Source of the DNA: a virus
Reading direction: 5' to 3' (one strand)
Length of the DNA stretch: 35,659 bases
Virus record (IMG/VR): IMGVR_UViG_3300024520_000256
The notes beneath the pieces were generated by a model, which was not told the DNA's origin, made no database searches, and saw only the letters and a list, made by a program, of their open reading frames with translations. Numbering within the stretch: the stretch's first letter is position 1; each line of letters opens with the position of its first letter. This document shows positions 4,907-35,659 of the stretch, piece after piece. Both the position numbers and the translations under genes were made by a program.

Positions 4907-4950
4907 CTTGTTATATATAAATTATATATAATATTTATATAAATATCAAG
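4907..4950 (-). promoter_or_regulatory. Triple-TATATAA element, copy B
   Basis: Boxes at 4914, 4925 and 4936, flanked by CTTG 4907..4910 and CAAG 4947..4950. The minus strand reads a perfect TTGATA-17-TATAAT. Confidence 0.65.
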
Positions 4951-5724: not shown

Positions 5725-6408
5725 TTAATCTAGATTATTTTGTTGAGGTTCTTCAGCGCTTGTTTGTTGAGCCTTTTCAGCACTCGCTTTCAGAGCTATT
5801 TCAATATGCTTATCGAATATTTCATTGATTCTTTTATCTTTGGTAAATTTATCACCATAACCTTTCTCGCCTTTTTTCCATAAAATATCCAATGATTTAG
5901 GATTCTTTTGCACAATTTTACATTGTTTATCAAACTCTTCGTGATTTAGCTCTCTTGGCTTTTGTGGAGCTGGTTTCTTTATTTGGGGCTTTCTTCTTTG
6001 TTGTTGTTCTGAATACCCTTCTAACTCCTCCGCTAAGACCCCTTCACCAACTGCATCTCTAAGAGCCCTACCCTTTGCCCTAGTTTCCGCCATTCGGACA
6101 ATATGAGGTTTTATGAAGTCACTTACATTACCTGGTGCAGCGTCCCCAATCCCGGTAAATGTTTTTAATATTTCTTCCCCTAATTCCCCCTCATCCATTA
6201 TCACAACAGCTCTAAACATTGCCACATTTTTATCATTTTCGTAGGGGTTCATAATCATTTCAGTTTCAATTGACTTTAAGCCCATCCTATGAGCCTTTTT
6301 AAGAACTCCGTTGTAAGTGACATAAGATTTACCTTTTATGTCAATCGTATCACCGGCTAATTCATCTGGATGGATTGCATTTTCACGGTTATGTTTTCTT
6401 TCATTCAT
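5725..6408 (-). CDS. Putative single-strand annealing protein (ERF/Rad52-like superfamily)
   Basis: GIGDAAPGNV....HIVRMAETRAKGRALRDAVG resembles the conserved core of ERF-type recombinases. The gene lies near other recombination genes, with SSB further downstream. Confidence 0.45.
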   Translation of the reverse strand: MNERKHNRENAIHPDELAGDTIDIKGKSYVTYNGVLKKAHRMGLKSIETEMIMNPYENDKNVAMFRAVVIMDEGELGEEILKTFTGIGDAAPGNVSDFIKPHIVRMAETRAKGRALRDAVGEGVLAEELEGYSEQQQRRKPQIKKPAPQKPRELNHEEFDKQCKIVQKNPKSLDILWKKGEKGYGDKFTKDKRINEIFDKHIEIALKASAEKAQQTSAEEPQQNNLD

Positions 6409-6710: not shown

Positions 6711-6759
6711 CCCTTGTTTGATATATAAAATATATATAATAATTATATAAACACAAGGG
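6711..6759 (-). promoter_or_regulatory. Triple-TATATAA element, copy C
   Basis: Boxes at 6722, 6733 and 6744, flanked by the 7-bp inverted repeat CCCTTGT 6711..6717 / ACAAGGG 6753..6759. Confidence 0.65.
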
Positions 6760-7641
6760 CTAAAATAACTCTGGGATAGATTTCTTTACTTTCATGATAA
6801 CATGTCTTTTTAATTGTTTGTAATCAATTTGAGGGTCTTTATTTTCCTTAATGAAATTCCATGACTCCTCTCTGATAAGGTCATAATAAACCGTGTTAAG
6901 TAGTCTAGGAATATATTTAGTTCTCCAACCGTCTTCAGCATTCCGAATCTTCTCATAGACCTTTTGAACAAAGTGAGGGGTGATATATTTATCTGTAATT
7001 TTCTTTTCTACAGCCAATTTTTCTTTAATATCCAAAGGGTCATTCATTGCTCTGTGTTTATCTTTGAATTCATTTCTCACAATTTTAGCCCAAGTTTGAC
7101 GGCCATATTTATTTTGATAAGAATAATTCTTAAGCACAACCCCCTCACCAATTCCTTCATCAATTAGATAAGTGTTTTTCTCACACATTTCATAAAGAGT
7201 TTCTGGTTTTGCGTCTTCAATTCTACACAAAGGAGGAATGAATTCTATTTCAAATTCTCTTAAAACATGGGCATAGTCATTATAATGAATTACCCCACTT
7301 GGACCGTAAACATCAAATACATAGAACTTTCTCCAAGCTGTTTTTCTATATGTCTTCAAAGAATGAGGGATTAACCATTCACCAAATAAACGCCAATCAG
7401 GATAGAGTAAGAGCAAATTGGCAAAACGCTCATCTTCAAGAATAGCCTTCATAAATCCTTGATTGTCATCATCTAAGGAAAGCTCACGATTTCTTGAACC
7501 ACACTTTAGCTCGTTCCCTTTTCGCCATACAGAGCCGTTTGACCCGTCTAGTTTAGGGAATACATAAACAACGCCCTCTTCAATTCCTTTTGTTTCTACA
7601 GTTTCATATCTTTCAACATGCTGATATCTTTTGAAATTCAT
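6760..7641 (-). CDS. RNA ligase, Rnl2-like nucleotidyltransferase family
   Basis: Motif I KLDGSN (Lys30), motif III LFGEWL, IIIa FYVFDV, IV EGVVLK and V WAKIVR, in the order expected for T4 Rnl2-type ligases. Confidence 0.75.
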   Translation of the reverse strand: MNFKRYQHVERYETVETKGIEEGVVYVFPKLDGSNGSVWRKGNELKCGSRNRELSLDDDNQGFMKAILEDERFANLLLLYPDWRLFGEWLIPHSLKTYRKTAWRKFYVFDVYGPSGVIHYNDYAHVLREFEIEFIPPLCRIEDAKPETLYEMCEKNTYLIDEGIGEGVVLKNYSYQNKYGRQTWAKIVRNEFKDKHRAMNDPLDIKEKLAVEKKITDKYITPHFVQKVYEKIRNAEDGWRTKYIPRLLNTVYYDLIREESWNFIKENKDPQIDYKQLKRHVIMKVKKSIPELF

Positions 7642-7663
7642 TCTATCTCCTGGTTAAAATGTA

Positions 7664-7748
7664 AAGAGAATGAAGGAATTGAACCCTCGCCAGTTTTATC
7701 TGGGCCACGCCTTAGCAAGGCAGCACATTACCACTCTGTCAATTCTCC
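7664..7748 (-). tRNA. tRNA-Ser (anticodon GCU), class II with a long variable arm; no encoded CCA
   Basis: Hand fold: acceptor GGAGAAU/AUUCUCU, D-loop AGUGGUAA, anticodon loop UUGCUAA, variable stem GCCAG/CUGGC, T-arm GAGGG-UUCAAUU-CCUUC. Confidence 0.85.
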
Positions 7749-7756
7749 GTCTAAAA

Positions 7757-7829
7757 GGCCGTAGGGAGGTATCGAACCCCCTACTTTTATGTCTAGACTC
7801 CCACCTGGGCTCTACGGCATGTCTACGGC
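7757..7829 (-). ncRNA. tRNA-like element: canonical T-arm and acceptor stem, but no foldable D or anticodon arm
   Basis: GGGGG-UUCGAUA-CCUCC followed by CUACGGC-C. The complementary GCCGUAG occurs twice (5' ends at 7829 and 7818) as a tandem GCCGTAGA duplication. The 73-nt version has tRNA numbering, but I found no 5-bp/7-nt anticodon hairpin. Confidence 0.4.
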
Positions 7830-7841
7830 ATTATACCCCAA

Positions 7842-8012
7842 TTAATTTCTAGTGTATAGTCTTTTAAGCTGTTTAAAGTTTAACATTCTGTCCCTAACAC
7901 ACCCTTTTTTAAGTTTTTTAACGCCTAAAAAAGCTGTGTACAAAACAACTCTTTCTTCTTCCGTTTGGCTTAGAAGATATTTTCTTAATTGTTTTACTCG
8001 TTTTCCATTCAT
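7842..8012 (-). CDS. Small, very basic protein (56 aa), not in the ORF track
   Basis: Hand translation MNGKRVKQLRKYLLSQTEEERVVLYTAFLGVKKLKKGCVRDRMLNFKQLKRLYTRN, with 16 Lys/Arg. ATGA overlap with the RHH gene stop. Confidence 0.45.
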   Translation of the reverse strand: MNGKRVKQLRKYLLSQTEEERVVLYTAFLGVKKLKKGCVRDRMLNFKQLKRLYTRN

Positions 8013-8170
8013 ACTTTTAGTTTTTTCTTTTTAAAATCTTTACGTAAAAGTTCCATAACGTAAGCGGTCATGTTTCCCCTATGGCCCGCTAGTTTGGAAG
8101 CTGCTTTAATTGTCTTTTTAAACGCTGGCTCCATCCAAAATAGGACGGAGGTTATTTCTTCACTTTCCAT
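8009..8170 (-). CDS. Ribbon-helix-helix (Arc/CopG/MetJ-like) DNA-binding protein (53 aa), not in the ORF track
   Basis: Hand translation MESEEITSVLFWMEPAFKKTIKAASKLAGHRGNMTAYVMELLRKDFKKKKLKV. The pattern is beta-strand, helix, G-x-x-N/S, helix. AGAGG SD, directly after element D. Confidence 0.6.
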   Translation of the reverse strand: MESEEITSVLFWMEPAFKKTIKAASKLAGHRGNMTAYVMELLRKDFKKKKLKV

Positions 8171-8186
8171 GCAAACCTCTATATGT

Positions 8187-8222
8187 TATATAGGTAATAT
8201 ATAATAATTATATAGGCTTGAC
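8187..8222 (-). promoter_or_regulatory. Triple-TATATAA element, copy D (divergent: outer boxes are TATATAGG and there is no clear -35)
   Basis: Boxes at 8187 (TATATAGG), 8198 (TATATAAT) and 8209 (TATATAGG). The 11-bp phasing is the same as in the other copies. Confidence 0.55.
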
Positions 8223-8596
8223 TATACCTTTCTACATTTGACATTAATTAGAAAGTCTATATGTGAAGTTAAATCTTCCATTTTATCTTTACATAAATAA
8301 GTGTCATAACCACTTAAGCCTGCAACTGTGGTAATGCTTTCTTCATGTCCTGTAAGGATTAGGAGGGGAATTCTAAACTTAAACTTAAGCTCAACTAGCT
8401 CCTGGTTTAGTTTATAGCTTTTGTCAGGCAAGTTAACATCTAATATGATTAAATCATACCTGTTTCTTTTAAGGGCTTCTAGTCCCTCTGTAAGGGTGTA
8501 TTTTGATTCACAGTCATAATGGCCTTCGACCTCCATTTTAGACTTTATACCATAACAAAACCCTTCATTGTCATCTATTAGGATTATCCTTTTCAT
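8222..8596 (-). CDS. Stand-alone response-regulator receiver (CheY-like REC) domain protein
   Basis: Asp8-Asp9 (ILIDDN), Asp53 (LIILDVNLPD), Thr82 (LLILTGH) and Lys103 (YLCKD) have canonical REC spacing. At 124 aa there is no output domain. Confidence 0.8.
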   Translation of the reverse strand: MKRIILIDDNEGFCYGIKSKMEVEGHYDCESKYTLTEGLEALKRNRYDLIILDVNLPDKSYKLNQELVELKFKFRIPLLILTGHEESITTVAGLSGYDTYLCKDKMEDLTSHIDFLINVKCRKV

Positions 8597-33002: not shown

Positions 33003-33057
33003 CCTTGTTGTTGTTTGTTAATATATAAAATATATATAACTATTATATAAATCCAAG
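33003..33057 (-). promoter_or_regulatory. Triple-TATATAA element, copy E
   Basis: Boxes at 33022 (TATATAAA), 33033 (TATATAAC) and 33044 (TATATAAA), with CCTTG 33003..33007 and CAAG 33054..33057. Confidence 0.6.
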
Positions 33058-35532: not shown

Positions 35533-35659
35533 TGTATATAAATATTATATAATTAATATATAAACATCAAGACATTTTTTCAAATTCTGCAATTTTCTTT
35601 AATCTGTCCTTTACTCTCCATACTCTCACTTGGTTTATTGAAAAGCCAATCATTAAACC
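35533..35659. repeat. Second copy of the terminal overlap (same as 1..127)
   Basis: Exact match to 1..127 read by eye. Confidence 0.95.

Follow-up and report, generated by a model that had tools for sequence, protein, structure and literature searches.

Phage T4 repairs tRNA-Lys cleaved by PrrC through the combined action of the healing enzyme Pnkp and the RNA ligase Rnl1. T4 Rnl2 (gp24.1; PDB 2HVQ/2HVR/1S68) joins a nucleotidyltransferase domain to a C-terminal helical domain, and we know of no assigned biological role for it; to our knowledge, the in vivo role of phage Rnl2-type ligases in general has never been pinned down. Rnl5 enzymes seal nicks between 3'-OH RNA and 5'-phosphate ends without healing partners, carry an N-terminal extra domain and have no C-terminal helical domain. 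Phage and bacterial RNA-repair cassettes have been described in which an RNA ligase is accompanied by a polynucleotide kinase, a phosphoesterase and the nucleotidyltransferase RlaP (Burroughs & Aravind 2016, cited in PMC12776372; PMC7824862). RlaP enzymes add nucleotides to broken RNA ends ahead of ligation (PMC12776372), and tRNA provisioning has been described alongside RNA repair (PMC7824862). T5 tRNA-Tyr replaces a host tRNA depleted by Retron-Eco7/PtuAB (PMC11555353); tRNA-Ser(GCU) is found in mycobacteriophages, and van den Berg et al. proposed that phage tRNA-Ser(GCU) bypasses nucleases cutting UCN-reading serine tRNAs (PMC10264068). The idea that phage Rnl2 ligases and tRNAs act against tRNA-targeting immunity is thus already published (PMC7824862, PMC10264068), with Rnl2 ligases, RlaP and tRNA provisioning proposed as counter-measures (PMC7824862). 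Here we analyse a viral DNA of 35,659 nucleotides (IMG/VR record IMGVR_UViG_3300024520_000256; the window), in which a tRNA-like element and a tRNA-Ser(GCU) gene lie directly ahead of a gene for a 293-aa Rnl2-type RNA ligase. We favour, as probable on balance, a reading in which this block is an accessory cassette that supplies and protects translation RNAs during infection, a role in RNA/tRNA repair and supply.

The ligase gene (6760–7641) lies on the minus strand, as do all genes of the window. Its product scores 55.4 bits with Pfam PF09414 RNA_ligase (E 1.1e-14; cutoff 27 bits) and, over its full length, matches phrog_548 'RNA ligase' (E 1.3e-41). The AlphaFold2 (AF2) model, with a predicted local distance difference test score (pLDDT) of 89, comprises a nucleotidyltransferase domain (residues ~1–190) and a C-terminal helical domain (~210–290, helices at 211–288). 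Full-length T4 Rnl2 (2hvr/2hvq) is the top Foldseek match of this model (E 4e-13, ~339 columns), followed by Rnl5, Rnl3, REL1, Rnl1 and Trl1. DNA ligases score E 6e-6 or weaker and are covered in the nucleotidyltransferase core alone; the protein has no DNA-ligase Pfam match, and its C-terminal domain is helical, with no OB domain. PDB sequence searches are weak, returning Naegleria Rnl5 and a marginal match to T4 Rnl2 with the family profile (E ~1e-3; 8e-4).

With hhalign, a 44-sequence family alignment matches T4 Rnl2, its sequence taken from the T4 genome record, over T4 residues 2–324 and hence across both domains (E 3.5e-6). K30 pairs with T4 K35, E88 with E99, F109/D110 with F119/D120, E166/K171 with E204/K209 and K186 with K225, so that motifs I, III, IIIa, IV and the first lysine of motif V are aligned. 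K30, D32, G33, E88, F109/D110, E166, K171 and K186 are invariant in the 44 homologues. The assignment to the Rnl2 family and the nucleotidyltransferase motifs read in the initial annotation are therefore both borne out. Identity to T4 Rnl2 is only ~17% and the protein is shorter (293 against 334 aa). It also belongs to a large separate clade of metagenomic proteins, with 2,742 matches at E <= 1e-5 among the candidates scored. In sequence, its nucleotidyltransferase domain is about as similar to that of Rnl5 (Naegleria NgrRnl, Deinococcus DraRnl) as to that of Rnl2; unlike Rnl5, the protein has its extra domain at the C terminus, in alignment with the Rnl2 one. We conclude from sequence and predicted fold that the protein is not a DNA ligase but an RNA ligase of the Rnl2 type, whose clade is distinct and very large. 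Profile and model show no catalytic degeneration, and the gene is under purifying selection, so the enzyme is unlikely to be dead. Since no biological role of T4 Rnl2 is known to us, the match says nothing about the substrate in vivo.

Immediately upstream on the same strand is tRNA-Ser(GCU) (7664–7748), a type II tRNA that was annotated from the start and is called by both ARAGORN and Rfam (46.8 bits against a gathering score of 29). It has a cloverleaf, a long variable arm and a GCU anticodon, with no encoded CCA. Its 3' end stands 22 nt ahead of the ligase ATG, and the Shine-Dalgarno (SD) sequence of the ligase, AGGAGA (7646–7651), lies within this spacer. As in the replacement of depleted tRNAs, the single tRNA of the phage is the Ser-GCU isoacceptor that has been proposed to escape nucleases of UCN-reading tRNAs; the phage differs from those cases in its unbiased serine codon usage.

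We examined the neighbourhoods of related ligases in loci from IMG/VR (80), metagenomes (80) and GTDB genomes (79; hosts in Bacteroidota, Firmicutes, Orbaceae and others), together with contigs of three close relatives. The 235 full-length ligases form 111 clusters, or lineages, at 70% identity; individual loci are given below by L numbers. In 9 of the 111 lineages, a same-strand tRNA or tRNA-like gene has its end in the 500 nt ahead of the ligase ATG (loci: the window, L076, L067, L037, L183, L144, L223, L260, L261, L265 and L273), and none lies within 500 nt downstream in any of the 111. One group excepted, identity between any two of these ligases does not exceed 55%. Upstream tRNAs number 5 in L260, 19 in L261, 11 in L265 and 3 in L273. 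When ARAGORN calls alone are counted, with one representative per cluster picked by length alone, four of the ten lineages that have any same-strand tRNA use the 500-nt upstream slot, against 0.69 expected (P = 0.003). Co-occurrence of ligase and tRNA genes thus holds as a non-random upstream placement, in a minority of lineages only. The portions of the literature on RNA-repair cassettes available to us do not state a rule that tRNAs stand immediately upstream of the ligase.

Healing enzymes are found beside other members of the clade. A fusion of a P-loop kinase (AAA_33) and an HD domain (PF01966), ~300 aa long, is encoded directly beside the ligase in 6/111 lineages (loci L076, L176, L215, L232, L233, L234, L247, L250 and L260). 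An RlaP-like pol-beta nucleotidyltransferase (PF10127) is near the ligase in 4/111, as sub-threshold matches of 15–21 bits against 23 (L076, L218, L232–L234, L247, L250 and the L047 group), and RtcB (PF01139, E 4e-59) in 2/111 (the L047 group and L191, 32% identity). L260 has the full arrangement of tRNA array, ligase and kinase-HD, and in L076 the order is an odd tRNA-Ser(CGA), ligase, RlaP-like protein and kinase-HD. These neighbourhoods, as read from gene content, support a ligase that would act on RNA ends, often alongside tRNA genes. The clade occurs in cassettes like those described for RNA repair, with kinase-HD and RlaP-like partners and with RtcB. The window phage differs in being stripped down to the ligase, one tRNA and the tRNA-like element, and in being a 35-kb podovirus rather than a jumbo phage.

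Several observations weigh against a repair-and-supply cassette. The second lysine of motif V in T4 Rnl2, K227, aligns with V188 in the hhalign register. Linkage to tRNA genes is a minority trait: 74 of the 80 IMG/VR loci have no tRNA within 5 kb, and neither do ~90% of lineages within 4–5 kb, frequencies that are rough, given that the search for relatives went by similarity of the ligase and that short contigs are numerous. The closest relatives (56–58% identity) lie beside SSB, DnaB or AAA_24 and have no tRNA. The serine codons of the phage genes, 34.5% of 681 being AGY, show no bias that would indicate dependence on tRNA-Ser(GCU). The whole block is absent from 42 phages that share the phage's upstream 262-aa structural gene; these have neither ligase, small open reading frames (ORFs), receiver gene nor tRNAs, and the block is accessory on this ground. 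Moreover, the phage encodes no healing enzyme that we could find, so breaks of the PrrC type, with a 2',3'-cyclic phosphate on one end and a 5'-OH on the other, could not be repaired by the phage alone, and the 'RHH pair' assigned to the two small ORFs of the block remains a guess. The tRNA repair or replacement counter-defence first suggested for the locus consequently stands in part: the placement of tRNAs and the kinase-HD, RlaP-like and RtcB neighbours of relatives speak for it, and the minority linkage, the missing healing enzyme and the unbiased AGY usage against.

Many of the same observations bear on the main rival, in which the ligase belongs to a toolkit for DNA replication, recombination or nucleotide metabolism and the tRNAs are mere neighbours at a module junction where accessory genes pile up. 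It might, for example, seal nicks with ribonucleotides on the 3' side or repair RNA-primed intermediates; Rnl2- and Rnl5-type enzymes do seal duplex nicks having an RNA 3'-OH strand. The largest lineage (~45 loci) has the order SSB-like protein, FEN 5'-3' exonuclease, dGTP diphosphohydrolase, HNH, ligase, MazG, RNR alpha and beta, and PhoH, which places the ligase between FEN/dGTP diphosphohydrolase/HNH and MazG/RNR/PhoH genes. Across the loci, 56 of 85 ligase genes overlap an upstream ORF, and in Cellulophaga phage phi19:3 and Clostridium phage Amboise the ligase sits among replication genes. The association of the nearest relatives with SSB, DnaB or AAA_24 fits the same role, as does the window itself, where SSB and a DnaD-like loader are encoded in the operons next after the ligase block and Pfam/PHROG scans detect no DNA ligase of the phage's own. 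Against this rival stand the Rnl2-type fold with its C-terminal domain and no OB domain, the adjacency of kinase-HD, RlaP and RtcB in several lineages, which points to RNA ends, and the directional, non-random placement of tRNAs. A separate DNA ligase is, in addition, encoded beside a relative of the ligase in Bacillus phage vB_BanS-Thrax2, and published accounts of HNH-Rnl2 fusions set them in a context of conflict and RNA repair (PMC7824862). We regard the replication role as rather unlikely, and it is the strongest competitor of the cassette reading.

Two of these neighbourhoods have further features. In the major lineage (L004–L080; for example L034 2772–3176), a gene for a 134-aa HNH endonuclease overlaps the ligase start by 4 nt in ~45 loci, and we take it to be the unfused counterpart of the published HNH-Rnl2 fusions. 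Thrax2 (L291 1–4903), whose ligase is a 28% relative, has a second RNA ligase, a polynucleotide kinase and ClpP nearby, as well as the DNA ligase; the company of these enzymes counts in favour of a link between the clade and RNA repair.

Healing enzymes were sought in the window in several ways. No kinase, phosphatase, RtcB or DNA ligase was found among its 58 ORFs by Pfam and PHROG; tblastn with RtcB, kinase-HD and nucleotidyltransferase queries gave no match in the window, and with hidden Markov models (HMMs) of the kinase-HD and RlaP-like proteins that partner the ligase in relatives, the six-frame translation gave only E > 0.1. The initial impression that no end-healing kinase or phosphatase is encoded is upheld by these scans. 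Because of this, the ligase acting alone would be confined to breaks with 3'-OH and 5'-phosphate ends, or else would need healing enzymes of the host; repair by this phage is probably limited to the former. Metal-dependent tRNases of the PIN, Toprim and HNH types are expected to leave 3'-OH/5'-P ends. The parallel with T4 Pnkp and Rnl1 is that a phage RNA ligase is proposed to undo host tRNA cleavage, and that relatives of this ligase lie beside kinase–phosphoesterase healing enzymes. It is unlike that system in being Rnl2-type rather than Rnl1-type and in lacking Pnkp or another healing enzyme in its genome, and the healing partner of the relatives is a kinase-HD fusion rather than the kinase-HAD of T4 Pnkp.

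The last gene ahead of the block encodes a 124-aa stand-alone receiver-domain protein (8222–8596, minus strand; PF00072, E 1.3e-11) that retains the acidic pocket as well as the phospho-Asp, Thr and Lys positions. For divergent 'cRec' receiver domains with a link to RNA ligases, Iyer et al. 2021 proposed a role as cyclic-phosphate esterases (PMC7824862). No homologue of the receiver gene occurs near the ligase in ~230 other loci, and its action as a cRec-type healing enzyme is only a lead.

Between the small ORFs and tRNA-Ser(GCU) lies the tRNA-like, 'top-half' element (minus strand, 7757–7829 or 7757–7818), identified from the sequence, its folds and an acceptor/T-arm scan. Its acceptor stem is perfect, G+C-rich and 7 bp long (GCCGTAG/CTACGGC), its T arm is canonical (GGGGG-TTCGATA-CCTCC), and a D-like hairpin of 3 bp has GG in its loop. 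There is no anticodon arm; ~18 nt take the place of this arm and the variable region. The element can be read in two registers, of 62 nt from 7818 or 73 nt from 7829 with the discriminator base included (61 and 72 nt without it). The 73-nt register uses the duplicated GCCGTAGA, in which the 5' acceptor strand is repeated 11 nt upstream, and folds of this longer register show, where the D and anticodon arms would be, a single long hairpin capped by a 4-nt loop. The direct repeats comprise two copies of GCCGTAGA (7829–7822 and 7818–7811) and two of TAGACAT (7825–7819 and 7795–7789); they create the two alternative acceptor registers and suggest the scar of a duplication or rearrangement.

Detection of the element by standard models is marginal. 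ARAGORN makes no tRNA call, and in Rfam only the tRNA-Sec model responds, with 14.3 bits against 47 and an E of 8. The acceptor and T-arm descriptor is matched by chance 0.145 times per dinucleotide-shuffled genome, whereas the probability of a chance placement in the ~90-nt same-strand slot beside a true tRNA is ~2e-4. Hence the same-strand position directly beside a true tRNA argues that the element is not a chance match, though the motif alone is not rare. Folding z-scores are unremarkable (–1.3 to –2.05), and the T-arm/acceptor halves of the element and of tRNA-Ser(GCU) have no exact match in IMG/VR. Of the tRNA-like element seen at first inspection, the acceptor stem, T arm and D-like hairpin are retained, without an anticodon arm and with the low Rfam score just given. 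It cannot decode; by general tRNA biology it would keep the features by which RNase P, RNase Z and the enzymes that add CCA recognise their substrates. The likeliest reading is a decayed tRNA gene still working as a processing signal. An attP site or integration remnant is an unlikely reading, since no integrase or recombinase family was found and both acceptor strands are there; a YrlA/Y-RNA-like or tmRNA-like identity has no Rfam support. This tRNA mimic without an anticodon arm is the sole unusual part of the block.

The processing features raise another alternative, that tRNA and tRNA-like element serve as punctuation controlling ligase expression, with no link between tRNAs and ligase chemistry. 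Cleavage by RNase P or RNase Z would then part the ligase mRNA from the regulator genes ahead of it and determine how stable it is. The 22-nt distance from the tRNA 3' end to the ATG, with the SD sequence in the spacer, would suit this, as would the failure to find a terminator-like site between the tRNAs and the ligase, an element that keeps acceptor, T-arm and elbow features for processing enzymes with its decoding parts absent, and the position of tRNAs in other phages, upstream of the ligase and never directly downstream. For most ligase genes, however, translation is coupled to that of an upstream ORF and no tRNA is involved, so punctuation is not needed; the arrays of 5–19 canonical tRNAs in L260, L261 and L265 are clearly decoding tRNAs; and the kinase-HD, RlaP and RtcB partners are left unaccounted for. 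We hold punctuation as the whole explanation to be improbable.

About equally doubtful is a functional small RNA, in which the element would be a decoy or competitor of tRNases or a cofactor of the ligase. Its perfect 7-bp acceptor stem, canonical T loop and GG D-like loop could form an elbow, and two phages unrelated to each other have comparable same-strand elements of 53–59 nt ahead of their ligase genes. These (L164 2692–2750, 59 nt, tRNA-Sec 26.6 bits; L144 681–733, 53 nt) likewise have an acceptor stem, T arm and GG D-like hairpin without an anticodon arm, and descriptor scans found no such element in 0.45 Mb of control phage loci. The three were compared by such scans rather than by a covariance model, and their MAFFT alignment was structurally poor. 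Two or three examples in 1.67 Mb are too few for statistics, and L144 fails a stricter filter, so their recurrence is a lead and not a finding. The other copies of the element itself are identical and come from near-identical contigs of the same phage, leaving no variation in which covariation might be seen, and the absent IMG/VR match of its T-arm/acceptor half, the unremarkable z-scores and the internal 8-nt and 7-nt repeats, which resemble a rearrangement scar, also tell against such a function. A bolder form of this proposal, that the top-half mimic works together with the ligase as decoy, cofactor or substrate and that small phages without healing enzymes carry a minimal cassette of mimic, tRNA and ligase against metal-dependent tRNases leaving 3'-OH/5'-P ends, we consider a long shot.

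Other unusual tRNA-like genes occur near the ligase in unrelated phages. Four of them (L067 4856–4983, L164 2832–2970, L064 426–562 and L020 7899–7999) have good acceptor and T-arm parts and middle insertions of 30–65 nt, too short for group I introns, and are missed by or fall below threshold with ARAGORN and Rfam. Gaps in the tRNA arrays of L261 (1600–1762 and 1915–2011), L265 (122–208 and 933–1014) and L260 (3899–4003), all upstream of the ligase, fold as further cloverleaf-like elements; their T loops are non-canonical, and ARAGORN leaves them uncalled. When seven loci were scanned with Rfam by E-value, nothing of the odd elements beyond their acceptor/T-arm parts was recovered, and the mitochondrial or low-threshold mode of ARAGORN was too noisy on upstream regions to be of use.

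Along the direction of transcription the block runs from an AT-rich element through orf53, orf56, the tRNA-like element, tRNA-Ser(GCU), the spacer and the ligase to a further AT-rich element. At its head is element D (8197–8215, minus strand), an AT-rich, near-palindromic, promoter- or operator-like sequence (exactly TATATAATTATTATATAT). It belongs to the family TATATAAnnATTATATAT, which has 21 matches in overlapping registers against 0.21 expected. Copies are found at five places (2–31, equal to 35534–35563; 4911–4942; 6721–6750; 8197–8215; and 33021–33050), each 25–45 nt ahead of the SD sequence and ATG of one of five operon heads. Four copies have a CTTG –35-like motif, which element D has not. 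The copy at 6721–6750 (minus strand) closes the block on its downstream side and heads the next operon, from orf97 onward, and a similar AT-rich element precedes the ligase in L087, a 58% relative. From their sequence, these elements are probably phage promoters or operators. A sigma-70-like match overlaps element D, and a consensus scan places another, TATACA-17-TATAAT (10/12 positions), at 7830–7858 on the minus strand; its perfect TATAAT ends 1 nt ahead of the first GCCGTAGA copy, and thus in front of the tRNA-like element. Such sigma-70-like matches are no commoner here than in shuffled sequence. The view that the block stands under a promoter element of its own hence keeps its structural half, a repeated element at the block head; promoter function we infer.

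Two small ORFs precede the RNAs on the minus strand. The first, orf53 (8009–8170), is an ORFan with an SD sequence AGAGG upstream; the second, orf56 (7842–8012), is a small basic ORF from the ORF list whose start overlaps the orf53 stop by 4 nt. Neither has a Pfam, PHROG or PDB sequence match or any backing from homologues, and orf53 has no homologues outside the phage itself. The residue pattern of orf53 resembles that of ribbon-helix-helix (RHH) proteins, and its single-sequence AF2 model (pLDDT 65) has two helices after a short N-terminal segment; with low confidence this model may be compatible with RHH, and it is no demonstration of it. An Arc-like identity of orf53, by analogy with P22 immI, has no statistical support, similarity to P22 Arc/Mnt not being significant (z <= 1.26; BLASTP E 0.17). 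Family and structure searches showed nothing RHH-like in orf56. The description of the two as an RHH pair is therefore not confirmed.

The genome is circular-assembled and ~35.5 kb long. The first ~128 nt of the window recur at its end, and this overlap indicates a complete genome, as had been assumed. The window contigs are metagenomic, and near-identical contigs are present in several samples. Scanned with Pfam and PHROG, the 58 ORFs show the phage to be a podovirus of P22-like type (P22 portal and coat, SU10 adaptor, scaffold, terminase, tailspike) that also encodes SSB, the DnaD-like loader, YopX, HNH and a GNAT acetyltransferase; no integrase/recombinase or DNA polymerase family was found in them. 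The DNA of the block showed no similarity to known phages. Two genes downstream of the ligase, a 227-aa protein (5725–6408, minus strand) has phrog_22961, a family of unknown function, as its sole match (E 1e-4), and a pattern search with this gene returned no relatives in IMG/VR.

We infer co-transcription, RNA processing, the substrate of the ligase and the counter-defence role in the following scheme, which sets out the cassette reading. The block would be transcribed from its own AT-rich promoter-like element, and the second –10-like site before the tRNA-like element may contribute. Host RNase P and 3'-processing enzymes would excise the tRNA-like element and tRNA-Ser(GCU), both of which would be completed by the host CCA-adding enzyme, as is required because no CCA is encoded. 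Excision would leave a ligase mRNA with a 22-nt leader carrying a strong SD sequence. The tRNA-Ser(GCU) would add AGY decoding independent of the host serine tRNAs, and the Rnl2-type ligase would reseal broken RNA, most plausibly nicked tRNAs.

The phage thus offers a minimal system, with 35 kb of DNA, one tRNA, one ligase and no healing enzyme found. Taken with the recurrence of a very large ligase clade behind tRNA genes or beside kinase-HD, RlaP-like or RtcB proteins, it makes a role in RNA repair directly testable, and suggests that some phages may act against tRNases whose 3'-OH/5'-P products can be ligated. A new kind of anti-defence RNA would be added if the truncated mimic proved to be functional itself.

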